From the NCBI GenBank assembly GCA_026396285.1, contig JAPLXB010000022.1, positions 9,506-73,505 on the forward strand: a stretch of DNA of 64,000 bases, read 5' to 3'. The position numbers and the translations under genes are program-made. Shown in pieces: positions 25,871-60,390 of the stretch; position 1 is the first letter of the stretch, and each line of letters opens with the position of its first letter. Source of the stretch: Candidatus Micrarchaeota archaeon (lineage in GTDB: Archaea > Micrarchaeota > Micrarchaeia > Norongarragalinales > JAPLXB01). The notes under the pieces are model-generated. The model ran no database searches and was not told where the DNA came from. It saw only the letters and a program-made list of their open reading frames with translations.

Positions 25871-26350
25871 TTAGACGAGCCCGTTGTCCGATGAAAGCGA
25901 GCGCACCACTGAAGGCAGTTCACGAAGGTCCCTGATGGTGTAGTCGGGTTCTTCTCCAGCATTTTCTGGAACAATTTCTGCGAATTTTCCTTTTCTGAAC
26001 CAAACAGTCGTGCATCCCAGTGCTTTGGAGTATTTCACGTCCTTCTTGATTTGGTCGCCGACCGCGAGCGTTTCTCGCGGTTCTACCCCCAGTTCACGGA
26101 CGCACTCCATGAAAATTGCTTCGTTTTTCTCTTCAACCACCTTCACCACTTTGAAAAACTTTCGTATGCCAAGTTCATTGAACAACTCTAGGCGGTTTCC
26201 CTCGCCTTTCTTGCTCAACAGTCCGAGCAGAAACTTTTTTGAAAGCTCTTCCAGGATGCCAACCGCTCCTTCTTCCAGCGCACCCTCGTCCGGGTTGAAG
26301 AGCGTGCGGTTGAAGTCAAAAACAATTGCCTTGATCATTTGCGTCCCCAT
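25871..26350 (-). CDS. HAD-like hydrolase (motif I variant DxN)
   Basis: 159 aa. IVFDFNRTLF (HAD motif I with Asn in place of the second Asp). GLLSKK. A C-terminal GDQIKKDVK motif-III/IV-like. Lower GC than its surroundings. Confidence 0.5.
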   Translation of the reverse strand: MGTQMIKAIVFDFNRTLFNPDEGALEEGAVGILEELSKKFLLGLLSKKGEGNRLELFNELGIRKFFKVVKVVEEKNEAIFMECVRELGVEPRETLAVGDQIKKDVKYSKALGCTTVWFRKGKFAEIVPENAGEEPDYTIRDLRELPSVVRSLSSDNGLV

Positions 26351-31471: not shown

Positions 31472-31594
31472 GGGCCCGTAGCTCAGCTTGGCTAGACCAA
31501 CTGCTTGGGCGATGCTTCGCATCGCCGGGGTAGGCGGGGCTACAGCAGCTGGCTTTTAACCAGAAGGTCGTGGGTTCAAATCCCGCCGGGCCCG
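31472..31594 (+). tRNA. tRNA-Lys(UUU) with a roughly 48-nt non-canonical intron in the D-arm
   Basis: Exon 1 is GGGCCCGUAGCUCAGCUUGGCUAGA (31472-31496). The intron is 31497-31544. Exon 2 is GCAGCUGGCUUUUAACCAGAAGGUCGUGGGUUCAAAUCCCGCCGGGCCCG. Spliced this gives a 75-nt cloverleaf with a 7-bp acceptor stem GGGCCCG/CGGGCCC, discriminator G, a D-stem GCUC/GAGC restored only after intron removal, and anticodon loop CUUUUAA. Confidence 0.65.
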
Positions 31595-35752: not shown

Positions 35753-36904
35753 TCACGGCTGCGTCCATTCTATTTCGTAGTACTCGTACTTGCTGCCCGG
35801 AAGCTCCACTCTCTTCACCCGGTAGTGAGTGATGGAAGTTTCGCGGTCGCAGATGGAGAGTATCAGTTCAAGGCCGACTTCCTTCGCGCGGCGCAGCGCC
35901 TGTGCCAGTTCCTGCCCCCCGATTTCCTCCTCTTCGCTTAGGGCCAGCATCACGAACTTCGGCTTGTCTTCCCTCGGGTTTTCTATCGCCCCGTGCTTCC
36001 GGTGGTACAACAGGAAGTCTAGTTCGGCGGCAGTCTCCTTTTTTTCGCCGGGAATCGCGAGGATGAACGTTTTTTTCACGCCGTGCGCCACGCGGATGGC
36101 GCGTGCCCATTCGCTGATTAGCATCTTGCTGTCGCGGGGGAACACGTGGATGACGTGCTTGGAGTGCATCCACTCCTCGTTCTCGAGCGTCGGTGACGCG
36201 CCCGGGAAGTAGAGGCGGAAGTGGGTGCCGAACTTGAAACCGGTTTTGAGCACGAAGCCGCGGAGGCGCCAGTCCTCGTAAACGTCGTACAGCGCGTTGA
36301 AGTCCTGCCGCCTTTGCGTCGCTTCCTTCACGAGCCGGGCTTCCTTGATGTTCAACACGTATCCGCCGTGGCGCATGAGGAAAAGCGTCTCGTACGCGTC
36401 GAGTTTGTTGAATTTCCCGTGCTTCCGCGCCTTGTACGTCCCGTACTGGCCGAACCAGTCGCGCTCATAAAGCGCCAGGCCTTTTTCCTCGTCGTCAATG
36501 ACGCTCATCAAGTCGTCGTACAAAAACAGGCCTCTGGCTTTCACGCGCGGGCAGTCAAAGTGCTTGGAAGGGTATTTCACCACCGGGCTGCGGCCGTAGT
36601 TGCCTTCGGCCTCGTCCATGGGCCTTGCCACGAGCCCGCGGTCGCGCCAGTCGCGGTAGCAGAAATAGCGCGCCATGAACTTTTTTCCCTGGAGTTTTGA
36701 CGCTAGGCGGTTGAAGGAAACCTGCTTGCCGTTGTGCGTGCAGGAGGCGTTCCTCACGTCCATCAAGTACAATGCTTCCACCGGCATTAGCTCCAGGACG
36801 TTTTTCCCGGTTTTTTTCCCGAAAAAGCCGCGCTCAAGCGCCTGCTCGGAAGTTATTTCCTTTGCCAGCACGCGTTCTCCGTCAAATTCAATAGTGACTG
36901 CCAT
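35753..36904 (-). CDS. endA: tRNA-splicing endonuclease EndA, long single-chain multi-unit form (about 383 aa)
   Basis: The true start MAVTIEFDG is at 36904. The 647-aa ORF-track version has a low-complexity spurious N-extension. Unit 1 is degenerate (YFCYRDWRDRGLVA, no catalytic triad). Unit 2 is catalytic: ALYDVYEDWRLRGFVLKTGFKFGTHFRLY...HSKHVIHVF...AHGVKK, carrying the Tyr/His/Lys triad. A further roughly 90-aa C-terminal segment resembles the last strand-helix-strand of an EndA C-domain (FVMLAL...AQALRRAKEVGLELILSI). Confidence 0.75.
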   Translation of the reverse strand: MAVTIEFDGERVLAKEITSEQALERGFFGKKTGKNVLELMPVEALYLMDVRNASCTHNGKQVSFNRLASKLQGKKFMARYFCYRDWRDRGLVARPMDEAEGNYGRSPVVKYPSKHFDCPRVKARGLFLYDDLMSVIDDEEKGLALYERDWFGQYGTYKARKHGKFNKLDAYETLFLMRHGGYVLNIKEARLVKEATQRRQDFNALYDVYEDWRLRGFVLKTGFKFGTHFRLYFPGASPTLENEEWMHSKHVIHVFPRDSKMLISEWARAIRVAHGVKKTFILAIPGEKKETAAELDFLLYHRKHGAIENPREDKPKFVMLALSEEEEIGGQELAQALRRAKEVGLELILSICDRETSITHYRVKRVELPGSKYEYYEIEWTQP

Positions 36905-37085
36905 TGGGCGTCTCCTCCGCGGGCACCAAAACCCCTTGATTGTCTGCTGCCCGGCGATTGAGTCGGCGAGCCTCTGCGGCTCTTTTAATATTCGCGCTGC
37001 CTTGATTAAAAAAGCGACTGCTTTGCAGCGGAGCCGGCGGGCCTGCCCGTCCTCCGGTCTGCCGCGTGCGGCGGGGGTAGCGGGA

Positions 37086-38363
37086 ATGGGTTTGCTTGAC
37101 GGCCTGGCGGGTTTCTGGAAAAAGCCCGGACCCAAGCCGGCTGCCGGGCGCAGGGAAATGCGCCTCGGCGAACTCGAGTCCTTCCTGAAAACGGAAAGGG
37201 CGGGAAAGCTCGCGCCTTTTGCGGAAAAATCGCGGGACGCGTGCGGAAAAATACTGGACGAACTCGCCGACGCCGCGCGGGCCGCGGAATCCCTCAGGGA
37301 CGCGGAGCCGACCGGCAAATGGAGCCGCATCGGCGAACAAATGAGGGAAAACTTCATCACACGCATAGTCCCGACCCTTGGAATCGCGCGCCACGGCGAA
37401 GGCTTTGAAGCCGCCGCCGAGTTCCACTCCAAGGCGTTCGCGGCAATCTCGGCGTGCACGAAAATATTGTCGGACAACCGGTACCTCCTGCACTTCTTTC
37501 CCAAATCCATGGGCGGTTTCGCGAAGAGGATGAACGCGGCGTCGGCGCTCGTTGAGGAACTCGGCAAAATCGTGCAAGGGGGCCGGCAGGCGGCCGCGGG
37601 GTTTGACGCGGCGGTTGGCGCGCTGAGGGAACGCGAGAAAACGCTCTCGGAGAAGGCTGTTGCCGAGAAGGAGATGGGTGAGTTGGAGGCGTTCAAAACC
37701 GGTTTGAAAAAGAGGATTGCGGAAGAGACTGCGGCCGCGTTGCCCGGGGGAAGGGGGCTTGGCGGCGCGGTTGCCGGAGGAGGCGCTTACGGGGCTGTTG
37801 AAAAAATCGCCGGCATTGAAAAGCGCGTTGGGGCGCTGAAGGCGGAGTTGGCGGTGATGCTGAACCCCCTGGATCGGCTGTTTAGGAAGTTGGAAAAAAT
37901 TTCCCTTGAGAAGCGCGTGGCTGAAAAAGCCGCTTTTTACGCGGCCGGCCCCGCCGACGCAGTGGTTGAAGGCGGAGAGGAAGGGTTGGAGGAATTGAAG
38001 CGCCTTGCAGAAGAAGTCGGCAAGGAACTCGCCGCCGGCCGCTTGGAGACGGACGGGGAGAAGAGGAAGAAAGCAGTGGCTGCTCTGGAACGGATTGACT
38101 TTGGAAAAGTTTCCGCGGCAGTGAACGAACTGGGTTCGCTTGAGAAGGAAAAGGCCGCGGCCGCAGCAGTGCTTGAAAGGGAAAAGGCCGCAGAGCGCGA
38201 GAGGCGGGACTTGGAGGAGGAGCTTGCGGCGGTGGAAATGAAGAAGGTGGCGTTGGAGGAAAAAATACGCGGCGCGGCGAAAAAACTCGCCGAATCCGTG
38301 GCGGGCATTGAAAAAAGCGCTTCCGCGGCCGCTGGCGTTGAAATAAAAATAGCCGCTGAATAA
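37086..38363 (+). CDS. Ala/Glu/Lys-rich coiled-coil protein (cytoplasmic), first gene of the filament supercluster
   Basis: 425 aa from the ATG at 37086. The longer ORF-track version overlaps endA on the other strand. Heptad-like EELAAxxAALE repeats run throughout. No TM. It ends 25 nt before the first class III signal-peptide gene. Confidence 0.4.
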   Translation: MGLLDGLAGFWKKPGPKPAAGRREMRLGELESFLKTERAGKLAPFAEKSRDACGKILDELADAARAAESLRDAEPTGKWSRIGEQMRENFITRIVPTLGIARHGEGFEAAAEFHSKAFAAISACTKILSDNRYLLHFFPKSMGGFAKRMNAASALVEELGKIVQGGRQAAAGFDAAVGALREREKTLSEKAVAEKEMGELEAFKTGLKKRIAEETAAALPGGRGLGGAVAGGGAYGAVEKIAGIEKRVGALKAELAVMLNPLDRLFRKLEKISLEKRVAEKAAFYAAGPADAVVEGGEEGLEELKRLAEEVGKELAAGRLETDGEKRKKAVAALERIDFGKVSAAVNELGSLEKEKAAAAAVLEREKAAERERRDLEEELAAVEMKKVALEEKIRGAAKKLAESVAGIEKSASAAAGVEIKIAAE

Positions 38364-38387: not shown

Positions 38388-38813
38388 TTGCTTCGGGTGG
38401 ATTGCTTGAGGGGACAGGCTGGTCTTGAATACGCGGCGATGGTGGCGATTGCAATCGCCATCATGGTTCCAATCTGGCTGTATGCGAGCGGCAGCATGGC
38501 TTCCGCAAAAGCGGAACTCCAATCGTCATACGCGAGGCAGCTCGTGAACAAGGTCTCAAACGCTGCTGACACCGTTTTCGTCCAAGGCGAGCCAGCCCAG
38601 TTGACGCTTTTTGTTGAATTTCCGGAAGGGCTGACTTCCGCGACCGTTGCCGGAAACGAAATTTCGTTCAGGCTTGTTACCGCGGCAGGCCCGACTGACG
38701 TTTACGCCGTCTCTCTTGCGAACCTCAGCGGCTCACTTTCAACGCGGCCGGGAAAGCACCGCGTCATAGTGAAGGCGTCTGGCGGGGCAGTCACGGTAAG
38801 CGAGGGTGATTGA
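38388..38813 (+). CDS. Class III (prepilin-type) signal peptide protein, pilin/FlaF-G-like
   Basis: 141 aa. The N-terminus ...LRGQAGLEYAAMVAIAIAIMV has a basic residue, G|Q, and E at +5 of a 20-aa hydrophobic helix. Confidence 0.55.
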   Translation: MLRVDCLRGQAGLEYAAMVAIAIAIMVPIWLYASGSMASAKAELQSSYARQLVNKVSNAADTVFVQGEPAQLTLFVEFPEGLTSATVAGNEISFRLVTAAGPTDVYAVSLANLSGSLSTRPGKHRVIVKASGGAVTVSEGD

Positions 38814-39206
38814 ATCCGCGCCCAGTCCTCCATTGAACTCCTCGCCGTAGTCGGCTTTTTGATAGCGATGTTCGCGGCTTTCACCGCAGTGAGCGACGCA
38901 AACAAGACATCCGCCCTTGAAAGGTCTGTTACAATGGACGCGAAACGCGTGTGCGACGCCGCCGCCGGTGAAATAAACACTGCCGAAAGCGTGGGGGACG
39001 GGTATTCCCATTCATTCCTCATCCCTGACTTCATTTTCGGGAGAGTCAATTTCTCCGTTCAACTTGTTCCCGAGACGCGGACCGTGGCGTGCTCGTGGAG
39101 CGGCGGCTTTTATGAAAGCCCGGTGCTTGCGGCGAATTTCACGGGCAACGTGCGCAAGGGAACAAACACGGTAACCAATTTCGCGGGAGTGGTTTCAGTT
39201 GGCTAG
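38814..39206 (+). CDS. Class III signal peptide protein (start codon unresolved)
   Basis: In frame directly after the TGA of the previous gene the sequence reads IRAQSSIELLAVVGFLIAMFAAFTAV, a prepilin-like N-terminus. No ATG/GTG precedes it. The first conventional start is the TTG at 38859, which would cut the hydrophobic helix. Confidence 0.35.
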   Translation: MRAQSSIELLAVVGFLIAMFAAFTAVSDANKTSALERSVTMDAKRVCDAAAGEINTAESVGDGYSHSFLIPDFIFGRVNFSVQLVPETRTVACSWSGGFYESPVLAANFTGNVRKGTNTVTNFAGVVSVG

Positions 39207-40317
39207 GGCGCAGGTTTTTGCAACAGATTTTGCCGCAAGCATCGTGATATTCTTTTCAGCGGTCTTGGTGGTTTCGCTGGCATGGAACGGTTTCCTGTCC
39301 GAATCAGCGGACGCTTCAACCCGCCACGCGATGCTCGTTTCGGCCCACTACGCCGCCGACGCCCTCGTGCAAACCCAGGGGGTGCCGGCCGCATGGAACG
39401 AGTCAACCGCCGTAGCAATTGGTTTGGCGGACGGCGAGCGCGTGCTTAACCTTTCGAAAATAATTTCCCTCCGGAAAATGGATTACGACGAGGCAAAGGC
39501 CATGCTGCGGCTCGGGCCATACCACTTCCGGCTGTCCATCACGGGAAAGAACGGCACGCTGCATTCCGGAATAATGCGGCCGAAAATCGCGCTTTTCGCA
39601 GTTGAAAAAACAGACCTCCTGCCGGTCGTGAACTCGTCGGGAATGCCGTGGGACTTTTACTACGGAAAGGAAGCGCCGGTTCCGGAAGGGCTTACTGCCG
39701 GCAAGGCGATAAGCGGCCCAAAGGCGGGCGTTTTCAACATGATGCTTGGAAACGGTTCCGCGTATTCCTTCATCGTCATAGAGGAACCGCGGCTCGCCCA
39801 AGCCGATGTCGATGCCGCTTCCCTTGAATCGTTCGTGCGACGCGGCGGCACCCTTTTACTTGAAGACGGCATCGGATGGGACGGCGAACTGCTGGTGGAG
39901 AATTACGGCATGCATGCAGTGGGTTTCGGGGAAAACCATGACGGGCCAGTTGTTTCCGGCGGGTATTTCCTTTCAAACGTTTCCCCCGGCGAATTAGTCT
40001 CCTTCGGTTCGTCGCAGTGGGGTTTGTTCCAGGCAGCGGGCGACTCGCCGATTTCAATGCACGTCGCGGACTCGGGCAACGCGTCACTCGCGCTGGCGGC
40101 GTCATGGAAGCACGGCTTTGGCACGATTTACTATCTTGCAGACGCTTCTGGTTCCGTTGGCGGAACGCCCCTCATCAACTCCCTGAACTTGGTCGGGGAA
40201 CCGCTGGAATACGGGCTTGAAGGAAACCCTTATGATGCTGCAGTGGTGACGCGCGCGGTGATAGTGCGGGGCGACTGGTCGGTTCCGGCAAATCTCGGCG
40301 TGGTGGTTTGGAAATGA
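39199..40317 (+). CDS. Class III signal peptide protein (372 aa)
   Basis: TTG start. (M)ARAQVFATDFAASIVIFFSAVLVV is a prepilin-like N-terminus. It overlaps its neighbours by 8 nt and 10 nt. Confidence 0.5.
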   Translation: MARAQVFATDFAASIVIFFSAVLVVSLAWNGFLSESADASTRHAMLVSAHYAADALVQTQGVPAAWNESTAVAIGLADGERVLNLSKIISLRKMDYDEAKAMLRLGPYHFRLSITGKNGTLHSGIMRPKIALFAVEKTDLLPVVNSSGMPWDFYYGKEAPVPEGLTAGKAISGPKAGVFNMMLGNGSAYSFIVIEEPRLAQADVDAASLESFVRRGGTLLLEDGIGWDGELLVENYGMHAVGFGENHDGPVVSGGYFLSNVSPGELVSFGSSQWGLFQAAGDSPISMHVADSGNASLALAASWKHGFGTIYYLADASGSVGGTPLINSLNLVGEPLEYGLEGNPYDAAVVTRAVIVRGDWSVPANLGVVVWK

Positions 40318-43300
40318 AAAGAATGTTTTTCCTCAGCCTGGATTCGCTGGTGGCGATAACCCTGCTGCTCGCCATTGTCCCGGCAATCGCTTTTTTTGAA
40401 AGCGCGTCCACGAACCAGGTGCTGCTTCAAAAGCAGTTGTACGTCCAGTCAGCGGACCTCGCCGACGTGATGTCCAAACTCAAGTTGGCTGACGTGGCAA
40501 CCGAACCAGTGGTTTCAAACGCGGTTGCCGCCGGCCTGATTGCCGAAAGCGACTTGAACAGGACCTTCCTTGAGGAACTCGTGGAGTTGTGGGCTTCGGG
40601 CACCGCCGGGAACGCGAGTCTGGCGCGCAACCTGACTGAAGGGATATTTTCCGGTTTTGTTTCCGGCAACCTGCGGTGGGCAGTCCTGTTGGACGGGGAC
40701 GAGATATTCAACTCATCCGGCGGAACAGGCTACCTTGTTGCTGCCGGGCGGAAAATAATATCGGGCCGGACGCGCAACGTTTCGGCCACGGGCTGCATTG
40801 CCAGCGCGGGCCTGCACTCCATTAAAAGCAAGTCTGCGGCCGCGTACTCGTTTTTCGGGGGTTTCGAGGGCGAAGGCAACCTCACGAAGGTAGTCAAGGG
40901 AATTCCTGATTCGTCCACGGTCAGCCTGATTCATCTCGAATTGTCCGCGGGGAACGCCTTCGAGCTGTCCGTCAACAACCATTCATGCGGCATTTTCAAC
41001 GCGACTCCAGGCAACCTCTCAGTCGACTCCTGGGAAATAACCGATGCCAACTGCACCGGCGCCATAGCCCCCGGCGAAGACAATTACTTTTACCTCAACT
41101 TCTCCGAAGCCCCTCTTGAAAAAAGCTACATCGGCGGCGGTTTCATAAAAGTAGTGTACGACACCAGCGAACTGAACCCGCCTTCCCCCAACGTTTTCCG
41201 CCACGACTTTCCAGGGATAAACGGCCTCATCAACTATTACTCCTCGTTCTATGTCCCGGGCAACGTGACTTCAATGAACCTCCGCCTCCACCTGTACAAC
41301 AATTACACCACATATGTAACAATAGGCAACGCAACGGTAATGAACTTTTCAGGCACCAACGAGTCCAGGTGGGTCAACGCCACCGACGCAAACCTTTCGG
41401 CCCTCCTGAACTATTCCCAAACCGGCTCGGCCACGATTCCGATACGAATAGGTGTGGAAGCTAACGTGACCAGCGGTAAGGTAAACGGGACCGCCGACGT
41501 CGTCCTCATAACCGATATTTCAGGGAGCATGGACTGGCAGATGAACAACAGCAACACCGGCACGCTAGTGAACAACTGCAGCGACCCCCGGCTGTACAGC
41601 TACACGACGAAGAGGATAAGCCTCGCAAAATGCCTTGACAAGAATTTCGTGGACCAAGTGCTCAGCCTGGAAGGCAACCGCGTCGCGCTGGTGGCATTCA
41701 ACAACAGCGTCGCGGCATACGAAAACCTGACTTCAAACGCGACCTACCTCGGCGGCATGATCAACAGGTACGCCGCAGTGGGCTCCACCTGCATCGCCTG
41801 CGCAATAAACAAGGCCTACGACCTCCTCGCCCAGCAAAGCACGGCAGGAAGGAAAAAATACATCGTGGTAATGAGCGACGGCGTCGCCAACCAGCGGGCC
41901 ACCCCCACGTGCTCGAACCTGAACGGCGTGAGCTGCGTCAACTCGGCGGCATTCGCGGTCGGAAACCTGGGAAACCGGATTGCGGCGTACAACCCCGCAT
42001 CGGACGACTGGGAGGCGCTGGAAACGAACTTCACGAGCACGTTCCGCGCCACGGCGGCCCTCAACTCGTCGTTCGCTTTCGCGGTAGGCGACTCGGGCAT
42101 AATACTCAAATGGGACGGGGCGAACTGGGCGAATGTCTCAAGCGCGTTCACCAACACTCTGCGCGGCGTCGCCATTTTCAACTCGTCCCTGGCGTTCGCG
42201 GTAGGCGACTCGGGCAGGATACTGAAATGGAACGGCACGACGTGGGCCAACGTTTCCAGCGGCGTGTCGGACAACCTGCGCGGCGTTTCGTTTGCGAACG
42301 CGTCCCTCGCTCTCGCAGTGGGCGACGGCGGGAGAATACTCAAGTGGAACGGCGCGTCATGGAGCGCGGACTCAAGCCCGACGACCAAGGATTACTACGG
42401 AGTGGATGCCCTCAACAACGCGCTCGCGTTTGCCGTCACTACGCGCAGCAGTTCGACCGCGGTGGTTGCGAAATGGAACGGCACGACATGGTCGTCCAAC
42501 TATTCGGCATCCCAGTCCCTGCGGGGCGTCGATGTCTTCAATAGTTCCCTTGCGTTCGCGGTTTCAACAAGCGGCAGGGTTTACCAGTGGTCAGGCGGCT
42601 CATGGTCATATACCACGCCGGCCTCGGATGAACTTGACTCGGTCAGCGTCTGCAACGCGTCGCGCGGCTGGGCCGCCGGCCAGCTCAACGGCCAATTATT
42701 GAAATGGGCTGGCTCGGCCTGGAGCACGGCGCAATACCCGCAATTCTCGTATGCGGGCGAATCGCCAACGGGCGTGGACTGCAGCGACGACGACTCCTGC
42801 TCGCTTTCGACGAGCATTCCGGTCAAGAACGCGAATTACAGCGCGTGCAGGGCGTTCAATTCAATCCAGAACCTCACCATCGACTCTATCGGCTTCGGCC
42901 CGGTCTCGTCCTGCCAGTTGGCGAACACCAGCCTTCGCTCGGTGGCGGACTGCGGAAACGGCACTTATTATTCAAGCGACAACGCCACGGAACTCGCGGG
43001 CGTCTACCGCCAGATAGCCGACAAGATACTGGTCCAGTCGACGATAACGCAGGTGCTGAACGTGACCGGAAACATCACGACGATACTCTATCCCGACTCC
43101 TACCTCGAAGCGGATTATTCGCCGGAAACCCAGCCGCCAGGATACCAGGAAATAACCGTGAACCTCGAAGCCGGGCCGTTCCAGTCGTGCAACGCGAGCT
43201 TCCTCGTGCCCCCCAAGATAAACGTGACCGAAGCGATGGCCACATCATATTCCGGCGTTTACTGGAGCGACAACGTTTCAATCAGGAACTCGCTGACTGC

Positions 43301-43877
43301 CGGGGAGTGGAAGAACCTCTTCTGGCTCGGAAACTACGGGAATTACACGCGCCTGGGCGACCCCTTCGTCATTCAGTTCCCGCCCTCGAACATCGCGGTG
43401 AACGAAACGAACCAAATTTACATCAAGACCGGGTATTCGCCGGCAAACTCGAGCCAGTACTGTTCCCAAGGCAACAAGCTGATTTATTCCGCCAGGATAA
43501 AGGCCGCGGTGCCCTACTCCCAGGTCCTCCCCAACTGCGGGGGCGGGGTCGTTCGCGTCTTTTACGACACCAACTACGACGGAGTCGCGGATTCCAGCGT
43601 TAATGTCACGGTGGGCTCGAACTCGTCGCCAGGATTCAATCCCGTTCCAAGGGACGTGTGGGAACTCCAGCCGGGCAGCAACGCGGTCGACGACGCTTTC
43701 CTGCGCCTTCTTTCCCTCCTCCGCCTCGTTTCAGGCAATTCGACTGCGCGGCCCGGGAGCGAGGAAAACCCCGTGAACTTCGCCCTCTCAGACCAGCTCA
43801 CTCCGGAGATAACCCTGACTACCGGAATACCTTACTTATGGGGACCGGTTCAAGTGGAGGTGATAACATGGGTGTGA
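40308..43877 (+). CDS. Large pilin-like protein with vWA domain and BNR/Ycf48-like beta-propeller repeats (1189 aa); candidate tip adhesin
   Basis: N-terminal MFFLSLDSLVAITLLLAIV hydrophobic anchor in prepilin style. A vWA MIDAS DVVLITDISGSMDW...VALVAFNN...VVMSDGVAN. At least 7 repeats of SSLAFAVGDSGRILKWNGTTWANVSS (SxDxGxTW-like). Many sequons. Confidence 0.65.
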   Translation: MEMKRMFFLSLDSLVAITLLLAIVPAIAFFESASTNQVLLQKQLYVQSADLADVMSKLKLADVATEPVVSNAVAAGLIAESDLNRTFLEELVELWASGTAGNASLARNLTEGIFSGFVSGNLRWAVLLDGDEIFNSSGGTGYLVAAGRKIISGRTRNVSATGCIASAGLHSIKSKSAAAYSFFGGFEGEGNLTKVVKGIPDSSTVSLIHLELSAGNAFELSVNNHSCGIFNATPGNLSVDSWEITDANCTGAIAPGEDNYFYLNFSEAPLEKSYIGGGFIKVVYDTSELNPPSPNVFRHDFPGINGLINYYSSFYVPGNVTSMNLRLHLYNNYTTYVTIGNATVMNFSGTNESRWVNATDANLSALLNYSQTGSATIPIRIGVEANVTSGKVNGTADVVLITDISGSMDWQMNNSNTGTLVNNCSDPRLYSYTTKRISLAKCLDKNFVDQVLSLEGNRVALVAFNNSVAAYENLTSNATYLGGMINRYAAVGSTCIACAINKAYDLLAQQSTAGRKKYIVVMSDGVANQRATPTCSNLNGVSCVNSAAFAVGNLGNRIAAYNPASDDWEALETNFTSTFRATAALNSSFAFAVGDSGIILKWDGANWANVSSAFTNTLRGVAIFNSSLAFAVGDSGRILKWNGTTWANVSSGVSDNLRGVSFANASLALAVGDGGRILKWNGASWSADSSPTTKDYYGVDALNNALAFAVTTRSSSTAVVAKWNGTTWSSNYSASQSLRGVDVFNSSLAFAVSTSGRVYQWSGGSWSYTTPASDELDSVSVCNASRGWAAGQLNGQLLKWAGSAWSTAQYPQFSYAGESPTGVDCSDDDSCSLSTSIPVKNANYSACRAFNSIQNLTIDSIGFGPVSSCQLANTSLRSVADCGNGTYYSSDNATELAGVYRQIADKILVQSTITQVLNVTGNITTILYPDSYLEADYSPETQPPGYQEITVNLEAGPFQSCNASFLVPPKINVTEAMATSYSGVYWSDNVSIRNSLTAGEWKNLFWLGNYGNYTRLGDPFVIQFPPSNIAVNETNQIYIKTGYSPANSSQYCSQGNKLIYSARIKAAVPYSQVLPNCGGGVVRVFYDTNYDGVADSSVNVTVGSNSSPGFNPVPRDVWELQPGSNAVDDAFLRLLSLLRLVSGNSTARPGSEENPVNFALSDQLTPEITLTTGIPYLWGPVQVEVITWV

Positions 43878-44812
43878 GGGGATTCCTTTACTCCATCGCG
43901 CTCCTGCTATTCATCATTCCAATAGTGTTTTTCATAAGCAACTACTTCGCCATCGCGTCCGCAAACGACTACGAGGCAACAATAGGCATCCGGGGCAGCG
44001 AATTCGCGTCGTTCGTCAATTCAATCTCATCGGACTTGCCGCGCGCCCTCCTCATAAGCGGCCGCAACTCTGTTGCTTCGGCGGTGTCCAGCGTTACCGG
44101 GACCGGCGCGCCGCTTGACGACGCGGCCCTGCGGCTCGAGGAACTGGCGCTTAACGGGACGCTGTACGGCCACGCCGCCATGAACGCTTCCCTCTCGCGG
44201 TGGGCGCAGCGCGTGCAGGAAATCGGGCGCGCCCGCGGGTTTGAAACGCGGATGGTCTTCGAATCGCTGAATGCCAGGCAGCTGGATTCGTTCAGCCTCG
44301 AGTTTTCAGCAACCGTTTCAATAAACATTAGCGACCGGGTCTCGAGCATGAACGTTTTCAGGACGCGGCATGAGACTGCACTGCTGCCAATAAACGGCTT
44401 TGAAGACCCGCTCTATGCGCTTGAAACAAACGGCATAATGCACCGCGTCATAAGCGAGGCCAACGAGACAGTCTATGGCGTAGCGGGAGTCGACCGCGCA
44501 ATAGCACAAAAGTATTACCTGCCTGCCGGCGATGGGGCAAGCTTCCTTGACCGCCTCGAGGGCGCGACCCAGGTTTCTGAAAAATACGCGAACCTTTCCC
44601 AACAGCCAATAGGGCTGGAGACTTTCGTGGACGTGCAGGAACTGCTCGACAACGGCCTTGAAATAAAGCAGGACCGGACTGTGGTGGACCACCTTTACTT
44701 CAACGAAACCGCCCCTCCAGGTTATGCGGTGAACGGCTCGCAATACCCCTTGTTCAGGATAGATGCGGAGCACGCCGCCCTATATGGCGTGAACGGCTCG
44801 CTCGCAGGCTGA
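43868..44812 (+). CDS. N-terminally anchored extracytoplasmic protein (314 aa), prepilin-like N-terminus
   Basis: The ATG overlaps the upstream stop (ATGGGTGTGA). MGVRGFLYSIALLLFIIPIVFFISNYFAIAS then a soluble domain. The longer ORF-track start at 43658 is judged a spurious extension. Confidence 0.45.
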   Translation: MGVRGFLYSIALLLFIIPIVFFISNYFAIASANDYEATIGIRGSEFASFVNSISSDLPRALLISGRNSVASAVSSVTGTGAPLDDAALRLEELALNGTLYGHAAMNASLSRWAQRVQEIGRARGFETRMVFESLNARQLDSFSLEFSATVSINISDRVSSMNVFRTRHETALLPINGFEDPLYALETNGIMHRVISEANETVYGVAGVDRAIAQKYYLPAGDGASFLDRLEGATQVSEKYANLSQQPIGLETFVDVQELLDNGLEIKQDRTVVDHLYFNETAPPGYAVNGSQYPLFRIDAEHAALYGVNGSLAG

Positions 44813-44818
44813 GGCACC

Positions 44819-44834
44819 TTATTAAAACCGGTTT
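44819..44834 (+). promoter_or_regulatory. TATA-like element with palindrome (TTATTAAAACCGGTTT) upstream of the wHTH/ATPase gene pair
   Basis: AT-rich box centred about 25-30 nt before the TTG/ATG start at 44846-44855. The same ATTAAAACCGGTTT 14-mer recurs at 59781. Confidence 0.35.
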
Positions 44835-44845
44835 GAATAATTCCC

Positions 44846-45559
44846 TTGATTGAAATGGCTGCTGACGAAAACATTGAGACAGTCATTGACCGCTTGGTCG
44901 ATTTCGTGAAATTAAAAGGCAGGGTCAGCGCGGTCGAGGCCGGGCGGGCGCTTGGCATGAGTTCCGGCCAAGTCGAGGGCATTGCCCGGCTGCTTGAGGA
45001 CAACGGGCTCGTACAAGTGCATTACACCCTTATTGGCACGGAACTCGCCGCGGTTGGAAGGGATTTGAAGAAAAAAGAGGGGGAAAAAAGCCGTGCAAAC
45101 GAGCCGGGCGCCGTGGAGGCGTACAAGGACTTCGAATCCTTCGTCAAGGAAAGCGAGGACATTTTCGAGTTCCTCAAGGAAGAGGTCTTGAAAAAAATGA
45201 CTGCCGCCGAGTCCCTGCTGGACCGGCTGGAAAAAGAGAAACTGGACGAAAACGACAAGACCGCGGTCAGGAAGGAACTCCGCCGGGTGACAAGCACCCT
45301 CAACAACTTCGAACCCACTCTCCAAAAAATCGTGCACGGGGAAAAGGAACTTAGGAAGCGCATAAGGGAAATCAGCAAGAGGACGGCCGCTGCCGAGAGA
45401 AGTAAACCCGGGATTTGGGACGGCATCAGGGACTTTGTTGCAAAATTTAAGCGCCGGAAGAAGGGGAAAATTCCCGCTCCAAGCGCTTCTCCGAAGTCGG
45501 AGAAGCGCAAAAAGCTTTTGGAACGACTCAGCCTTTCCCGCAAAAGGGTGCTGAAATGA
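44846..45559 (+). CDS. Cytoplasmic wHTH-like plus coiled-coil protein, translationally coupled to the filament ATPase
   Basis: 237 aa. The N-terminal roughly 70 aa (VIDRLVDFVKLKGRVSAVEAGRALGMSSGQVEGIARLLEDNGLVQV) looks like a winged helix. A charged coiled coil follows. Its stop overlaps the ATPase start (ATGA). Confidence 0.45.
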   Translation: MIEMAADENIETVIDRLVDFVKLKGRVSAVEAGRALGMSSGQVEGIARLLEDNGLVQVHYTLIGTELAAVGRDLKKKEGEKSRANEPGAVEAYKDFESFVKESEDIFEFLKEEVLKKMTAAESLLDRLEKEKLDENDKTAVRKELRRVTSTLNNFEPTLQKIVHGEKELRKRIREISKRTAAAERSKPGIWDGIRDFVAKFKRRKKGKIPAPSASPKSEKRKKLLERLSLSRKRVLK

Positions 45560-47058
45560 AAGTGCTTGCAAAATACGTCATCCAAAGCGAGAACGTGCCG
45601 GCAGAGGTTACCATCGCCCAGCGCGAAGAAGAGTACATAAACACCTACGAACTCAAGCACGCGAAGGTTATGGAGGCAACGAACGTCGTCCTTAATTTCC
45701 TGAAGGAGAAAATCATTGAAGGCGTCGACATCAGGATTTCCGAAATAATGGATCCGCGCGAGGCCGAGCGCGTAAAGGAAAAAATAATCCCAACGGCCCA
45801 CGAACTCGTCAGGAAGGAACTGCCGGGCGTGAACAGGGACGAGGAAGACATCCTAGTAGGGCGGCTTGTCCAGGAAATGCTCGGACTAGGCGAAATGGAA
45901 CTCCTCCTCGCAGACGACGAGCTTGAGGAGATAGTCGTCAATTCTTCAAAAGAGCCAATCTACGTTTATCACAAGAAGTTCGGCTGGCTCAAGACCAACG
46001 TATCAGTCACGTCAGAGGAGCAGATTCACAACTACGCTTCCATCATCGGGAGAAAAGTCGGGAAACAAATCACTAACCTCAACCCGCTCATGGACGCGCG
46101 GCTCCTCAGCGGAAGCAGGGTCAATGCCACGCTGTTCCCCATCTCCTCAAAGGGCAACGGTTTCACGATAAGAAAATTTGCGAAAGACCCGTGGACCATA
46201 ATCAACTTCATCAACCCCAAGATAAACACCCTCAACGCAGAAACCGCCGCCGTAATCTGGCAGGCGGTGCAGTACGAAATGAACATAATCGTTGGCGGCG
46301 GCACCGCTTCTGGAAAAACCTCTTTCCTAAACGCCATACTTGCATTCTGCCCGCCCAACCAGAGGATTGTCTCAATAGAGGACACGCGCGAACTCGTGCT
46401 CCCCGACTTCCTCCACTGGACCCCGCTCGTCACCAGGGAACCGAACCCGGAGGGCAAGGGCGGGGTGGAAATGCTCGACTTGATGATAAACTCGCTCCGC
46501 ATGCGGCCCGACCGGATAGTGCTGGGCGAAATCAGGCGGCAGCGCGACGCAGAAGTGTTGTTCGAGGCAATGCACACGGGCCACGCCGTATGCGGGACCC
46601 TTCACGCGGATGACGCGATGCAGGTCAAGTCGCGGCTCACGAGCCCGCCCATAAACCTGCCGGAGGAAATGCTGGGCGCCCTTCAACTCACCGCAGTCCA
46701 GTACCGCCAGAGGAGGACCGGCATCAGGAGGACGTATGAAATCGCCGAATTCATGCCCGAGGGGAAGACGATGGGCATAAACACCGTTTACAAGTGGGAC
46801 CCGAAGAGCGACAGGCTGGAAAAGGTCGGGGAGGGCCTGCGCCTCATCAGCGAGCTGTCAATGCACACTGGCATGAGCATGAAGGAGATGCGCGAGGATC
46901 TGGATGACAAGAAGGACGTCCTCAACTACATGAGCGAACACCAGATTGCCTCGGTCAACGAGGTTGGAAAGGTCGTCGCGTCCTATTACCGCGACGGGGG
47001 ACGCGTGACAGAAGGAGTCCGCAAGAAAACGCCGCCCCAGAAACTCTTCGGCCGGTGA
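45556..47058 (+). CDS. Type IV filament/secretion ATPase, FlaI/TadA/GspE family (module 1)
   Basis: 500 aa. Walker A GGGTASGKTS. An Asp box. Walker B VLGEIR-type. A His box (MHTGHAV). The N-terminal domain resembles archaeal FlaI/PilB. Confidence 0.85.
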   Translation: MKVLAKYVIQSENVPAEVTIAQREEEYINTYELKHAKVMEATNVVLNFLKEKIIEGVDIRISEIMDPREAERVKEKIIPTAHELVRKELPGVNRDEEDILVGRLVQEMLGLGEMELLLADDELEEIVVNSSKEPIYVYHKKFGWLKTNVSVTSEEQIHNYASIIGRKVGKQITNLNPLMDARLLSGSRVNATLFPISSKGNGFTIRKFAKDPWTIINFINPKINTLNAETAAVIWQAVQYEMNIIVGGGTASGKTSFLNAILAFCPPNQRIVSIEDTRELVLPDFLHWTPLVTREPNPEGKGGVEMLDLMINSLRMRPDRIVLGEIRRQRDAEVLFEAMHTGHAVCGTLHADDAMQVKSRLTSPPINLPEEMLGALQLTAVQYRQRRTGIRRTYEIAEFMPEGKTMGINTVYKWDPKSDRLEKVGEGLRLISELSMHTGMSMKEMREDLDDKKDVLNYMSEHQIASVNEVGKVVASYYRDGGRVTEGVRKKTPPQKLFGR

Positions 47059-47061
47059 AGC

Positions 47062-47937
47062 ATGATGAAGCCAGCGGTTCCATTCAGCCTCATTCCCCCC
47101 AGGGCGTTGTTCGCCGCGGGAAAAAAATACGCGGCGCTCGGCATCCAATTGACACGCGCCTTTTCCGAACTGAAGACTAACCTCGCCCAGGCGGAAATGG
47201 AAATTGCGGCAGCGGAGTACGCCGCGGCTTCCCTTGTTTCAGCGGCGCTCAACACCGCATTCATCCTCATCCTCATACTGTTCTTCGGCTACCTCGCGTC
47301 GGCAAACGTCCTGACGGCGGCACTGGCCCTTGCACTGGTCACCGGCGCAAGCTCGTTCCTGACCGCCGTATACTACCCGAAAATAATCGCCCTCCGCCGC
47401 AAAAGAAAACTGGAGGACAACCTTGTTCCGGCGGTGCGCCAGCTCGTTATAGAACTCAAGTCGGGGGTGCCGTTGTTCGAGGCCATGACGAGCGTTTGCG
47501 ACGACTACGGCGAAGTGTCGGAAGAGTTCAAAAAAATAGTCAAGAAAATAAACGCCGGCGAGGCCGAAATAGACGTGCTCGGCGACGCGAGCCGCCGACT
47601 GCCGTCAGTGCAGTTCCAGAAAGTCATCTGGCAGATATCAAACGCCCTGAAAGTCGGGTCGGACGTGAGCAACGCGCTTGAAGCAATACTCGAGGACTTG
47701 ACCGCCGAGAAAATAAACGAAATCAAGAGATACTCCCAGGAGCTTTCGCCATGGACAATGGTTTACATGATGACTGCAGTCATACTCCCCTCGCTCGGAA
47801 TCACTCTCGGGATAGTCATACTGTCGTTCCTGAGCGTCTCGGTTCCCAGGATGATATTCGCGGTGGCGATCGTCTTCCTCGTCATCTTCCAGTTGTTTTT
47901 CATGAACTTCCTTGGAACGCGACGGCCCGCGATATGA
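47062..47937 (+). CDS. TadB/TadC(FlaJ)-like polytopic membrane platform protein, single T2SS-F domain
   Basis: 291 aa. A cytoplasmic helical domain between TM1 and TM2 (VPAVRQLVIELKSGVPLFEAM...) is typical of the GspF/TadC fold. Confidence 0.65.
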   Translation: MMKPAVPFSLIPPRALFAAGKKYAALGIQLTRAFSELKTNLAQAEMEIAAAEYAAASLVSAALNTAFILILILFFGYLASANVLTAALALALVTGASSFLTAVYYPKIIALRRKRKLEDNLVPAVRQLVIELKSGVPLFEAMTSVCDDYGEVSEEFKKIVKKINAGEAEIDVLGDASRRLPSVQFQKVIWQISNALKVGSDVSNALEAILEDLTAEKINEIKRYSQELSPWTMVYMMTAVILPSLGITLGIVILSFLSVSVPRMIFAVAIVFLVIFQLFFMNFLGTRRPAI

Positions 47938-48990
47938 GTGATTGAATTGTTTGAAAAAATATACTACCAAACTGCCGAAATATTCCCGCCTTCCGCGGTG
48001 GAGAAAACCAGGGAGCTCCTGCAGCAGGGCGGAATAGAAAAAATAAGCCCGAAGGTGTATCTTGGACTCGGCACATACCTTTCAACCGCGCTCGCCCTCA
48101 TTGCCTTCTTCCTGGCCCCCATTTTCGTTCCCGGCCAGCATCCTGCCGCATACGTCGGAATAGCCGTGGCCGTCCAACTCCTCGCCGGCATACTCTTTTA
48201 CCTGAACCTGACAATGACCGCGGAAAACAGGGCTGAAAAAATAGAGGCAATGCTTCCCGAAATGCTCCAGATAATTTCCGCAAACATACGGGCGGGAATG
48301 ACCCTGGAAAACGCGGTCTGGTCCTCAGCAAGGGAAGAATTCGGGCCGCTGAGGGACGAGATAAAGAAGGTTTCGGCAGACGCGTACCGCGGAATACCCA
48401 TACAAGATGGAATGCTGAACATGAGCAAGAGAATACGGTCAACCCTCGCCGAAAGGGCGATAAAACTCATAGTGGAAGGGATTGCAAAAGGGGGGGAAAT
48501 GACCCGCCTACTTGACCGCGTGGCATGGGACCTCAAAAGCGCCCAGACGCTGCGCAAGGAAATAACGACGGCCACCCTGACTTACTCGCTTTTCATTGTT
48601 TTCGCCGCAGTCATCGTAAGCCCCCTCCTGTTCTCCGTCTCCACCTACTATTCGGAAATGAATGAAAAAATAGCGGAAAAAACCACTGCCTCGCCAGAAC
48701 TCAACATGTCCAAATCAGTGAGGGGCGGCCCGATGACCTATTCCGCCATCCCCATCATGGGCTTCGGGCAACGGCCAAAAGACATGATAACCTCGAACGA
48801 AATAAAGCTCTTCGCGTACGCGGCAATAATAATCACAACCGCTTTCAGCGCCCTCCTGCTCGGAGTGATTCGCTACGGGAAGCCCAGCAAGGGCCTGAAA
48901 TTCCTCGTCTTGTTCGTCGTCCTCGGGCTCGCCGTGTTTTCGCTCGCCCACGATTTCCTGACAGCCGCCTTCTCAAGCATCATGCGATAA
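47938..48990 (+). CDS. TadB/TadC(FlaJ)-like membrane platform protein, second single-domain paralogue
   Basis: 350 aa. A GTG start lies immediately after the TGA of the previous gene. Same T2SS-F-like layout (LPEMLQIISANIRAGMTLENAV...). Confidence 0.65.
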   Translation: MIELFEKIYYQTAEIFPPSAVEKTRELLQQGGIEKISPKVYLGLGTYLSTALALIAFFLAPIFVPGQHPAAYVGIAVAVQLLAGILFYLNLTMTAENRAEKIEAMLPEMLQIISANIRAGMTLENAVWSSAREEFGPLRDEIKKVSADAYRGIPIQDGMLNMSKRIRSTLAERAIKLIVEGIAKGGEMTRLLDRVAWDLKSAQTLRKEITTATLTYSLFIVFAAVIVSPLLFSVSTYYSEMNEKIAEKTTASPELNMSKSVRGGPMTYSAIPIMGFGQRPKDMITSNEIKLFAYAAIIITTAFSALLLGVIRYGKPSKGLKFLVLFVVLGLAVFSLAHDFLTAAFSSIMR

Positions 48991-49063
48991 GGCACGCTTT
49001 TACCATGCCCCTCCGCCGCGCGATTAAAACGATTTTTATACCAAACGCGCTTTCCCTTTAATC

Positions 49064-49861
49064 ATGGCAAAGAAAAAGCAAACGCCACTGCACAGGGCCC
49101 GCGCAAGCCGCGCCGCGCCGGCAGAACACGAACGCCGCGAAAAGACTCCCGCCGAAGCCGCTCCTGCAGGGGAGTCGCCGAAGGTCAAGTCGGGGATTCC
49201 GGGTTTGGACAGGCTCATTGGCGGCGGCTTCGAGAGGGAAAGCGTGGTGCTCGTCACCGGCGACGCGGGAAGCGGGAAAAGCACATTGGCCATGCAGTTC
49301 CTGTGCAACGGCGCCAGCCAATACGACGAGCCGGGCATACTCATAACGTTCGAGGAACGCCGCGAGGACATAATCAAGCACATGAAGTCCTACGGCTGGG
49401 ACATCGAGGCATTGGAAAAGGAGAAGAAAATAAAGATACTTGAATACCCCCCGCACGAAGTGGAGCGCTTCATTTCAGAAGGCGAAATAATCCGCGACCT
49501 CATATCAGACCTCAAGGCGAAACGCATGGTGATAGACTCCATGACTTCCTTCGCGCTCGTTTTCGACAACGAGTACAAGATGAGGCTAGGGGTGCTGAAG
49601 GCGATTGATTCCCTGAAAAAATGGGGGTGCACTGCGCTCCTGATTTCCGAAGGAAGCGTGACCGAACAAGGCGAGGTCAGGGACCGTTTCGGCATAGAAT
49701 ACCTCGTCGACGGCACGATATACCTGTATAACAAGCGCGTGCGCGACTACCGCCAGAAACTCGTTGAAATCGTGGAACTCAAGGGCGTCAAACACGACAA
49801 CGCAATCCACCAGCTCGTCTTCGGCAGGAAGGGAATAAGCGTAGAGGAAAGATCCGCATGA
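49064..49861 (+). CDS. KaiC/FlaH-like RecA-superfamily ATPase
   Basis: 265 aa. GIPGLDRLIGGGFERESVVLVTGDAGSGKSTLAMQFL (KaiC-type Walker A) and Walker B MVIDSMT. A Lys/Arg/Ala-rich N-terminal tail. A TATA-like element sits 23 nt upstream of the ATG. Confidence 0.7.
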   Translation: MAKKKQTPLHRARASRAAPAEHERREKTPAEAAPAGESPKVKSGIPGLDRLIGGGFERESVVLVTGDAGSGKSTLAMQFLCNGASQYDEPGILITFEERREDIIKHMKSYGWDIEALEKEKKIKILEYPPHEVERFISEGEIIRDLISDLKAKRMVIDSMTSFALVFDNEYKMRLGVLKAIDSLKKWGCTALLISEGSVTEQGEVRDRFGIEYLVDGTIYLYNKRVRDYRQKLVEIVELKGVKHDNAIHQLVFGRKGISVEERSA

Positions 49862-50958
49862 AGGCGCAGACAGCGGTCGAACTCCTAGTCATCCTCGCGG
49901 CCGGCCTCATTGTGATAGGCATACTCTTCGTCTCCAGTTACGAGCGCCTCGCGGGCTCCCAGGCTTCGCTCTCGGTTTCGCAGGCCCAGGCGGCCGCAAA
50001 CGACTTGGCCAACGCGGCGGACACGGTGTGGTTCGAGGGCGCCGGCGCGAAGAAAAACGTTTACATCGAACTGCCGAACGCAATAAACTACTCGCTGGTT
50101 TCCGGAAACACCGTGCTGTTCAGGGTCGCCGTCCCATCCGGCCTCACCGACGCGGTCGCGAAATCAACTGCGCCCCTGTTTGGCTCAGTGACCGCGAAAC
50201 CGGGGGCCCAACTCGTGAGCGTCTACGCCACCGAGTCCGCCGTGGTAATCGGCATGCAGTCCCTCGCGGCAGACCCCGCACTCCTACTCACCCAGGCATT
50301 CGCGTCCAACGCCACTCAAAACGTGCAAAAAACATTCAACGCCTCCAACAACGGAAACTCTTCGCTCGACGTTACCGCCGCCCTAGCATGGAGCAGCGGC
50401 GGCGTGAATGTCTCGTTCGCCAACCCCTCCGACTCCTACTTCTCTCTCGCGCCCGGCGCCAGCCGCTCGATAACCCTGAACGAGGCCGTTGGCGCCAACG
50501 TCATGGGCTCGTTTTCGGGAAGCGTCCTGCTGAACGCAAGCAACGGCGAGGAGGCCACAGTGTACGTGGTCGTGGAAGTGTCGCCGCCTTACTGCCCATC
50601 GTGCCCCGGCTGCCCGCCCTGCGGAGGCGGCGGGAACGAGACGGTCTCCTGGTTCGAGATAACCACGTGCCCCGATGCCTCGTGCACGAGGGAACAGCTG
50701 GTCTTCGACGCCGGCAACGACTCGCAGGTCGACATATTCAGCACCGGGTCGTGGGACAGGAACTCCCTCCTCACGATAAACGTGTCCTACCCCAACGGCA
50801 CGAGCGTGCCCGGCTACCCGAAAGACGTCAGCACGACCTTCATCGGAAGCTTTTCCGACTACTGGGTCTTCGCCCCAGGCGCGCCAAACGGAACATACAC
50901 CGTGCGCGTAAACCAAAGCCCGTACTCCAATTACACGGCGTTCAACGTGACATGCTGA
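49858..50958 (+). CDS. Class III signal peptide protein (366 aa) with C-terminal Cys/Pro cluster
   Basis: MKAQTAVELLVILAAGLIVIGILFV (K-A|Q, E at +5). The ATG overlaps the kaiC-like stop. C-terminal PPYCPSCPGCPPCGGGGNE. Confidence 0.55.
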   Translation: MKAQTAVELLVILAAGLIVIGILFVSSYERLAGSQASLSVSQAQAAANDLANAADTVWFEGAGAKKNVYIELPNAINYSLVSGNTVLFRVAVPSGLTDAVAKSTAPLFGSVTAKPGAQLVSVYATESAVVIGMQSLAADPALLLTQAFASNATQNVQKTFNASNNGNSSLDVTAALAWSSGGVNVSFANPSDSYFSLAPGASRSITLNEAVGANVMGSFSGSVLLNASNGEEATVYVVVEVSPPYCPSCPGCPPCGGGGNETVSWFEITTCPDASCTREQLVFDAGNDSQVDIFSTGSWDRNSLLTINVSYPNGTSVPGYPKDVSTTFIGSFSDYWVFAPGAPNGTYTVRVNQSPYSNYTAFNVTC

Positions 50959-50968
50959 GGAATTTGAA

Positions 50969-53128: not shown

Positions 53129-53133
53129 ATTGA

Positions 53134-55372: not shown

Positions 55373-55410
55373 ATATATTAAGGGAACGACTAATCAACGC
55401 GGGGACTTGA

Positions 55411-58661: not shown

Positions 58662-58718
58662 AAGCCGGCTTGAAAGAAATTGCGCTGCAAAAACTTCGCA
58701 AAAAAAAGGTCTTCAACA

Positions 58719-59735: not shown

Positions 59736-59780
59736 AACCGCCCGGCAAACAAAGAAAGGCTTAAAAAACCCGGAATTGTA

Positions 59781-59795: not shown

Positions 59796-59808
59796 GGTGA
59801 TGGAATAA

Positions 59809-60345: not shown

Positions 60346-60390
60346 AATTCATGAGTATTTTTTTGAATCGAGTTTTGAGGTGAAAATGAA

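Follow-up and report, generated by a model that had tools for sequence, protein, structure and literature searches.

How is a gene translated when its conserved N-terminus begins directly behind the stop codon of the preceding gene, with no canonical start codon in between? The question is raised by a 64,000-nucleotide stretch of DNA from a Candidatus Micrarchaeota archaeon (GenBank assembly GCA_026396285.1, contig JAPLXB010000022.1, positions 9,506–73,505 of the forward strand), which we call the window and number from its first letter. A type IV pilus-like operon in the window includes three small pilin-like genes, pil1, pil2 and pil3, and the gene in question is pil2. We found that a genuine and conserved ATC occupies the start position of pil2, that a Shine–Dalgarno (SD) sequence lies upstream of it and that the reading frame behind it is constrained. 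Collectively, these data suggest that pil2 is probably a functional minor pilin gene of this operon, the translation of which starts from a near-cognate ATC that is conserved and preceded by a strong SD.

The pil1–pil2 junction and its ribosome-binding site

When positions 38388–39206 were translated in one frame, pil1 was found to end in GGT GAT TGA and the frame to continue as ATC (38814) CGC GCC CAG TCC TCC ATT GAA CTC, encoding the peptide IRAQSSIELLAVVGFLIAMFAAFTAV. The frame stays open for 130 codons from the ATC and is closed by TAG at 39204–39206, and the remaining two frames are closed across the junction. No ATG, GTG or TTG occurs in frame between the pil1 TGA and the conserved pil2 N-terminus. 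The only near-cognate codons ahead of the hydrophobic helix are ATC 38814 and ATT 38832, and the earliest canonical in-frame starts, TTG 38859 (15 codons downstream) and then ATG 38868, both lie within the helix. The original prediction had described a prepilin-type N-terminus in frame right behind a TGA and lacking a canonical start, with ATC and ATT as the sole near-cognates ahead of the helix and the first TTG in its middle; the translation, the frame reading and the orthologue alignments below bear this out, with the trivial correction that the peptide quoted as 24 codons has 26 residues. It had also listed four options without choosing among them. Initiation or reinitiation at the ATC is now the best supported, readthrough of the TGA and decay of the gene are disfavoured, and a sequencing or assembly error is effectively excluded.

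The anti-SD sequence was taken from the 16S rRNA encoded in the window itself, the 3′ end of which is GATCACCTCCA. The end reads ...GGTTAGATCACCTCCAA, from which GGAGGTGATC follows as the SD consensus. GGTGA(T) stands 3–7 nucleotides upstream of gene starts in the window, and the pil2 ATC is preceded by such a motif within the end of pil1 (GAGGGTGAT-tga-ATC). The predicted duplex of GGGUGAUU (38804–38811) with the anti-SD has an energy of −10.9 kcal/mol, a value that beats the best start of 46 of the 48 predicted genes, is exceeded by two and is reached at 0.7% of window positions. The three nucleotides between SD and ATC are also the spacing of pil1 (GGGTGGAT-tgc-TTG), of gene 43868 (GGAGGTGAT-aac-ATG) and of genes 47062 and 57720, and the model mRNA of Pyrococcus abyssi used in studies of archaeal initiation has a comparable one (GGAGGUGAU-uuaa-AUG; PMC6237735). 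Furthermore, a paralogous pilin junction at 53134 has the same layout, in-frame TGA included, as GGGTGAAT-tga-GTG AAG GCT CAA (MKAQ); in this junction (GGGTGAATTGA-GTG) the GTG stands where pil2 has ATC. The energy at TTG 38859 is −2.8 kcal/mol, and the best canonical candidate within the first 40 codons does no better than −5.4 kcal/mol. The SD motif GAGGGTGAT, which the original prediction had missed, is the strongest single argument for the proposed initiation at 38814. We found no other SD with a near-cognate start in the window, every other instance of GGTGA followed by a near-cognate codon being internal to a long gene, and saw no sign that start selection in the window is generally relaxed.

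By every sequence hallmark and by its genomic neighbours, the predicted product is an archaeal type IV pilin-like protein. Its leader and cleavage motif, (M/I)-R-A↓Q-S-S-I-E-L (arrow, predicted cleavage), aligns with eight orthologues. It shares with archaeal type IV pilins a short basic leader, [KR]-[GAS] before the glutamine, a glutamate at +5, a hydrophobic helix that spans about 20 residues behind the cleavage site (QSSIELLAVVGFLIAMFAAFTAV) and genomic linkage to a PilB/FlaI-type ATPase and PilC/FlaJ-type platform proteins (T2SSF). Archaeal class III signal peptides are processed by PibD, FlaK or EppA; no match to a prepilin peptidase (A24) was obtained among about 38 window proteins scanned, which represent 64 kb of the genome. 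What sets pil2 apart from known archaeal pilins is its ATC start, a leader of three residues and a globular part outside the families of Pfam, NCBIfam and PDB. It did not match the Pfam model Class_IIIsignal (PF04021), which is 27 positions long and scores short leaders poorly, or other pilin models; one orthologue reaches E = 0.0027 against Class_IIIsignal and another E = 1.7e-4 against DUF7287. The globular part gave no significant match in Pfam, in NCBIfam, in a PDB profile search or in Foldseek with a single-sequence AlphaFold model. This model (predicted local distance difference test score, pLDDT, 66) has a long N-terminal helix at residues 6–56 followed by four strands, and its best structural match in the PDB, a Streptococcus minor pilin, is not significant (E = 0.48). 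Tryptic peptides predicted for pil2 include VCDAAAGEINTAESVGDGYSHSFLIPDFIFGR and TVACSWSGGFYESPVLAANFTGNVR.

Orthologues, strain variants and selective constraint

To place the ATC relative to the starts of related genes, a genome collection was scanned with the ATPase of the cluster. This returned 80 loci from DPANN archaea, the nearest being L002 (Micrarchaeota) and L003 (Norongarragalinales) with 68–69% ATPase identity. The order pil1-pil2-pil3 is syntenic in both, and tblastn recovered pil2 orthologues in six further loci. Alignments to the syntenic orthologues start at residue 1–2 of the pil2 open reading frame (ORF), with E values down to 7e-16; the likeness of the N-terminus is thus not due to chance. 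In seven of the eight orthologues an ATG lies 3–9 codons ahead of the +1 Gln, as in ATG AAA GGA CAA (MKGQ), MKSQ, MPRGQ and MKFKRAQ; the eighth, that of L002, has a TTG 22 codons upstream. In the protein alignment the Met column of the orthologues lands on the window's ATC, and over the full length pil2 retains all seven invariant columns. That distant orthologues have ATG at this place shows the ATC to be the replacement of an ancestral ATG. The original prediction had held that conventional starts in orthologues would speak against it. The distant orthologues (about 30% identity) do have ATG; the closest strains keep ATC, so the ATG of distant relatives does not make the ATC an artefact.

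A survey by regular expression, which covered 160 DPANN loci and the window, gave 227 ORFs with a class III signal, 224 of them with a canonical start. Among these 224, M-[KR]-[GAS]-Q is the modal geometry: the start most commonly lies exactly three residues before Q (59 cases), which is the arrangement of ATC-CGC-GCC-CAG. The three exceptions are pil2 of the window, pil1 of L002 and pil3 of L003, all with intact class III signals, in the same operon type and in the three closest genomes. In L002 (CAZOKY010000002.1, about 1085–1225), pil1 has 45 open codons and no canonical start, with a masked run of N just upstream; in L003 (JAVYMB010000015.1, about 880–985), the pil3 codon at the site of the L002 ATG is AAA, and 9 nucleotides after an AAGGTGA motif there is an ACG in frame. 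That the only other two exceptions of the survey fall in the two genomes closest to the window could raise the significance of pil2. It is distinctly unlikely, on present evidence, that pilin genes of this Micrarchaeota clade (Norongarragalinales and its relatives) lose canonical starts as a lineage trait and not as a one-off. If it were, these archaea would routinely translate minor pilins from near-cognate codons, driven by the SD or coupled to termination, and so set subunit stoichiometry. Two metagenome relatives, FWPU01007719.1 and Ga0315295_10078467, have an ATPase 86–87% identical to that of the window and are closer than any genome in the species-level collection; both contigs end about 4 kb upstream of the ATPase, short of the pil1–pil2 junction.

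The junction was identical in five assemblies, namely the metagenome-assembled genome at NCBI, Logan SRR20698646 and SRR20698647, ENA ERZ27248201 and JGI 3300032516, which represent at least four samples and two lineages. The Logan assemblies belong with the window: SRR20698646 has one single-nucleotide difference over 10.5 kb, distant from the junction, SRR20698647 is identical, and both contain GGTGATTGAATCCGC. The second lineage came from a search with the pil1 protein, which returned two strain variants on short contigs of other projects (ENA ERZ27248201 and JGI 3300032516); protein searches with pil2 and pil3 returned just the gene itself. The two contigs diverge from the window by 2.2% (24 of 1084 positions), and match it exactly across GAGGGTGATTGAATCCGCGCCCAG. 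The sole difference between them is a 9-nucleotide in-frame deletion in the JGI pil1, corresponding to window positions 38703–38711, which removes Tyr-Ala-Val. Hence the ATC is older than the split of the two lineages.

Selection was assessed from the substitutions between these lineages. Codons 1–70 of pil2 contain ten, of which seven fall on the third codon position, where one third would be expected (P = 0.02). The ten comprise six synonymous changes and four nonsynonymous ones (S5A, F23L, T40S and I70V, all conservative), so that the ratio of nonsynonymous to synonymous changes per site (pN/pS, Nei–Gojobori) is 0.22, with a binomial P of 0.018 against neutrality. For the same substitutions the two alternative frames gave pN/pS values of 2.9–3.0, and pil1 has a value of 0.26. 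As far as a comparison of sequences can tell, the test shows that the pil2 frame is translated and selected. There is no stop or frameshift in the 130 pil2 codons.

Proposed initiation at AUC and the competing explanations

From these features we infer how AUC would be used, how strongly pil2 would be expressed and how coupling and peptidase cleavage would contribute. The strong SD duplex formed by GGGUGAUU in the end of pil1 would position the small (30S) ribosomal subunit and thereby place the AUC in the P site, 3 nucleotides downstream of the SD as in neighbouring genes. Initiator Met-tRNA would pair with AUC with a third-position mismatch, leading to inefficient initiation, and ribosomes terminating at the abutting pil1 TGA may add initiation by termination–reinitiation. 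The product, (M)-R-A↓QSSIELL..., would then be cut by the prepilin peptidase before Q4. Because this peptidase removes the leader (M)-R-A, the identity of the first codon would affect only dosage and not the mature protein. The outcome would be low-level expression of a minor pilin, and a dosage-only effect of an ATG-to-ATC change plausibly suits such a protein.

Known systems offer precedents for parts of this scheme. In Escherichia coli, AUC initiates at about 1–2% of AUG (range 0.02–3%) with Met still incorporated, and infC and pcnB, both with AUU, resemble pil2 in having a conserved third-position near-cognate of AUG behind an SD, with Met as the first residue; their starts give deliberately low translation (bioRxiv 10.1101/063800). 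In contrast to these genes, pil2 has AUC instead of AUU, would be subject to archaeal selection by aIF1, aIF1A and aIF2, offers no evidence of autoregulation, would lose its first residues and is known from sequence alone. Ribosome profiling in Haloferax placed about 30% of putative, unvalidated alternative initiation sites at near-cognate codons (PMC7261190). Termination–reinitiation, in archaea as in bacteria, depends on gene overlap or very short spacing, often with an intragenic SD (PMC6728339, PMC10666635), and in model organisms coupling is gone by about 20 nucleotides (PMC10666635). Coupled pairs of Haloferax volcanii and E. coli are like pil1–pil2 in their 0-nucleotide distance, an SD in the upstream 3′ end, subunits of one complex and an overlap-rich operon (PMC6728339, PMC10666635). 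Unlike pil1–pil2, the studied pairs have canonical restart codons, and coupling of pil2 to pil1 is putative.

Several points weigh against initiation at the ATC. The other 47 predicted genes and the other nine class III signal genes of the window need no non-canonical start, which makes pil2 an isolated case; the same would hold for a recent mutation of a start codon. The selection signal consists of just ten substitutions in 70 codons of one pair of lineages. Because seven of the ten are located downstream of TTG 38859, the constraint test taken alone can neither distinguish an ATC start from a truncated product nor locate the start. The case for AUC use is built entirely on sequence, and in the literature we came across no archaeal AUC start established by experiment. 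Archaeal aIF1 discriminates against non-canonical starts, according to Sulfolobus work cited in PMC6237735. In addition, a UGAGUG gene pair of Sulfolobus was uncoupled in vitro, so that stop–start adjacency is no guarantee of coupling (PMC6728339).

The main rival, which we consider unlikely, is that the change from ATG to ATC silenced or nearly silenced pil2, leaving a young pseudogene or a dispensable minor pilin in decay. It draws support from the ATG of distant orthologues, from the fact that pil2 alone, out of ten class III signal genes in the window, lacks a canonical start, and from the poor performance of near-cognate codons, the activity of which in E. coli does not exceed a few percent of that of AUG (10.1101/063800), together with the bias of aIF1 against non-canonical starts (PMC6237735); the missing starts of L002 pil1 and L003 pil3 could also mean frequent loss of pilin genes in the clade. 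Against such a loss, the 2.2%-diverged lineage has kept both ATC and SD, all four replacements are conservative at a pN/pS similar to that of pil1, and the uninterrupted frame retains every family-invariant residue. The value of 0.22 likewise disfavours the decaying gene that the original prediction had entertained.

It is improbable that pil2 is expressed as annotated, from TTG 38859 or ATG 38868, to give a protein of 115 or 112 residues without a signal peptide. These are the sole canonical in-frame starts, both have been called (by GenBank and Logan), and the selection signal lies mostly downstream of 38859. However, they have no SD to speak of, and their use would delete the signal peptide and half the helix: the product would begin in the middle of the transmembrane helix, with about ten hydrophobic residues, neither insertable nor processable. 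Orthologue homology, moreover, reaches back to pil2 residues 1–2, and all 224 comparable genes start ahead of the [KR][GAS]Q motif.

That the pil1 TGA undergoes programmed readthrough into a tandem pil1–pil2 fusion is highly improbable. As in programmed stop-codon readthrough, the downstream ORF continues in frame right after a UGA, and it is constrained; such placement is expected by chance in one case out of three, and the GTG-started paralogue at 53134 also has an in-frame TGA directly ahead. An ORF reached by programmed readthrough lacks initiation signals and acts as a C-terminal extension, whereas pil2 has its own strong, correctly spaced SD, an N-terminal signal that works only at a free N-terminus and orthologues that are encoded separately, behind spacers and with an ATG of their own. 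The second helix of a fusion would presumably cross from outside to inside, which would put the R-A↓Q site on the outer face, away from the peptidase on the cytoplasmic face, and leave the pil2 domain in the cytoplasm. TGA also closes 36 of the 48 predicted genes in the window, including those for aIF2-gamma, H+-pyrophosphatase and adenylate kinase, and no suppressor tRNA was found within the 64 kb. The Pfam domain matches of aIF2-gamma and H+-pyrophosphatase reach to 2–5 residues from the C-terminus, and adenylate kinase matches the complete ADK profile, which ends 24 residues ahead of it. The earlier claim that TGA is a genuine stop elsewhere (adk, aIF2-gamma) thus holds, and genome-wide or local recoding of TGA was rejected, since the conserved proteins checked stop at or shortly past the end of their domain match.

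Barely credible is initiation at GTG 38806 (GTGATTGA, an 8-nucleotide stop overlap) with a −1 shift into the pil2 frame, or a 1-nucleotide deletion from an ancestral GTG ATT GAA ATC...; the overlap geometry is that of pil2/pil3 and one added base would give MIEIRAQSSIEL, but this GTG lies inside the SD itself and hence has no SD upstream, there is no slippery site, both lineages have the same sequence, and no orthologue backs the longer leader. A sequencing or assembly error at 38814–38816, where one C/G difference would restore ATG, is effectively excluded because the four further assemblies aligned across the junction, from differing runs and pipelines, left it unchanged in both diverged lineages, and no ATG-started pil2 protein occurs in a collection of 5.8 billion proteins.

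If the AUC is used, pil2 would provide a natural, conserved near-cognate start codon in an archaeon, and its start is predicted to be a further case of a known class, that of non-canonical start codons. Near-cognate starts are documented for a few bacterial genes; our literature search found no experimentally established archaeal case. Start selection in archaea, by aIF1, aIF1A and aIF2, resembles the eukaryotic system. Pilin genes are good reporters of odd starts, since their class III signal narrows the position of the N-terminus down to a few codons. The result also bears on annotation: both the public entry, MCX6767407.1 (115 amino acids, start TTG 38859, locus tags NTY90_), and the Logan call (112 amino acids) strip the signal peptide, and because they do so pil2 would be missed in censuses of pilins and secreted proteins of DPANN archaea; the public entry calls for correction. 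Surface filaments of these archaea are thought to mediate contact with the host.

Operon and window context

The window has a G+C content of 57% and carries the archaeal markers aIF2-gamma, class I lysyl-tRNA synthetase (LysRS), tRNA-splicing endonuclease and an archaeal rRNA operon. The features of the junction and of the pilus cluster to which it belongs (cluster A) are collected in Table 1. Gene calls for pil1 in Logan and ENA are 135 amino acids long, and pil1 has orthologues in L002 and L003. Further downstream, the VWA-domain protein (1189 amino acids) has a pilin-like N-terminus, the FlaI/PilB-type (T2SSE) ATPase is encoded at 45556–47058, and the T2SSF platform proteins at 47062–47937 and 47938–48990. 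ATGA overlaps occur at 40314, 45556 and 49858, and junctions of 0, −4, −8 and −10 nucleotides such as those of this operon are typical of coupled translation.

Table 1. Coordinates of the pil1–pil2 junction, the surrounding pilus cluster and its gene junctions (window numbering)
Feature	Position	Strand	Description
pil1, first pilin-like gene	38406–38813	+	Probable start TTG 38406 (M-R-G↓Q-A-G-L-E-Y), cGGGTGGATtgc TTG; stop TGA 38811–38813
pil2 Shine–Dalgarno GAGGGTGATT	38802–38811	+	In the last pil1 codons; GGGUGAUU pairs with 16S 3′ end ...GAUCACCUCCA
TGA stop of pil1	38811–38813	+	In frame with and abutting the pil2 start position; intergenic distance 0 nt
ATC, proposed non-canonical initiation codon of pil2	38814–38816	+	Aligns with orthologue ATG; kept in second lineage
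pil2 class III (prepilin) signal	38814–38891	+	3-residue leader (M/I)-R-A, predicted cleavage before Q4, Glu +5, helix to V26
pil2 full ORF, minor pilin-like protein	38814–39206	+	130 codons plus TAG
Annotated pil2 starts TTG 38859 / ATG 38868	38859–38870	+	GenBank MCX6767407.1, 115 aa / Logan call, 112 aa; neither with usable SD
pil3	39199–40317	+	Start TTG 39199 (M-A-R-A↓Q); 8-nt overlap with pil2 stop (TTGGCTAG)
Rest of pilus cluster A	40314–49861	+	VWA-domain protein, two unknown genes, FlaI/PilB-type ATPase, two T2SSF, KaiC/ArlH-like ATPase
Junction pil1 / pil2			0 nt
Junction pil2 / pil3			−8 (TTGGCTAG)
Junction pil3 / VWA protein			−4 (ATGA)
Junction VWA protein / next gene			−10
Junction gene 44846–45559 / ATPase			−4 (ATGA)
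Junction T2SSF1 / T2SSF2	47935–47940		0 nt (TGA GTG)
Junction KaiC / next gene			−4 (ATGA)

A second type IV pilus-like cluster lies directly downstream (49858–60792). It has class III signal genes at 49858, 53134, 53501, 54078, 59809 and 60391, a 770-amino-acid T2SSE ATPase (55411–57723) and two T2SSF genes; gene 53501 has an unusually long leader, with 24–31 residues ahead of RG↓QLFSIDIL. On the other side of the junction, the upstream neighbour of pil1 (37086–38363, + strand, 425 amino acids, no family match) is far less constrained than the pilins between the two lineages, with a pN/pS of about 1.3 from tiny numbers (one synonymous and four nonsynonymous changes). Its stop-to-stop ORF, 36675–38363, overlaps the 5′ end of the opposite-strand tRNA endonuclease gene (about 36930 by domain hits).

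Elsewhere in the window, a HAD hydrolase (25871–26350) was considered as N-terminally truncated and this was set aside, motif I (FDFNRT) being present and the Pfam alignment merely local. Just upstream of the adenylate kinase gene, 31536–31594 (+ strand, 59 nucleotides) narrowly passes the Rfam gathering threshold for a tRNA (29.1 bits, threshold 29), a borderline match that ARAGORN did not find; it could be false, or come from a tRNA fragment or from a tRNA that is atypical or split. A tRNA-Ala gene occupies the rRNA spacer (6704–6776). The matches to 23S rRNA (2803–6451, − strand) and 16S rRNA (6972–8582, − strand) are oversize, at 3649 nucleotides against a 2987-position model and 1611 against 1478, which suggests insertions or introns in both rRNA genes.

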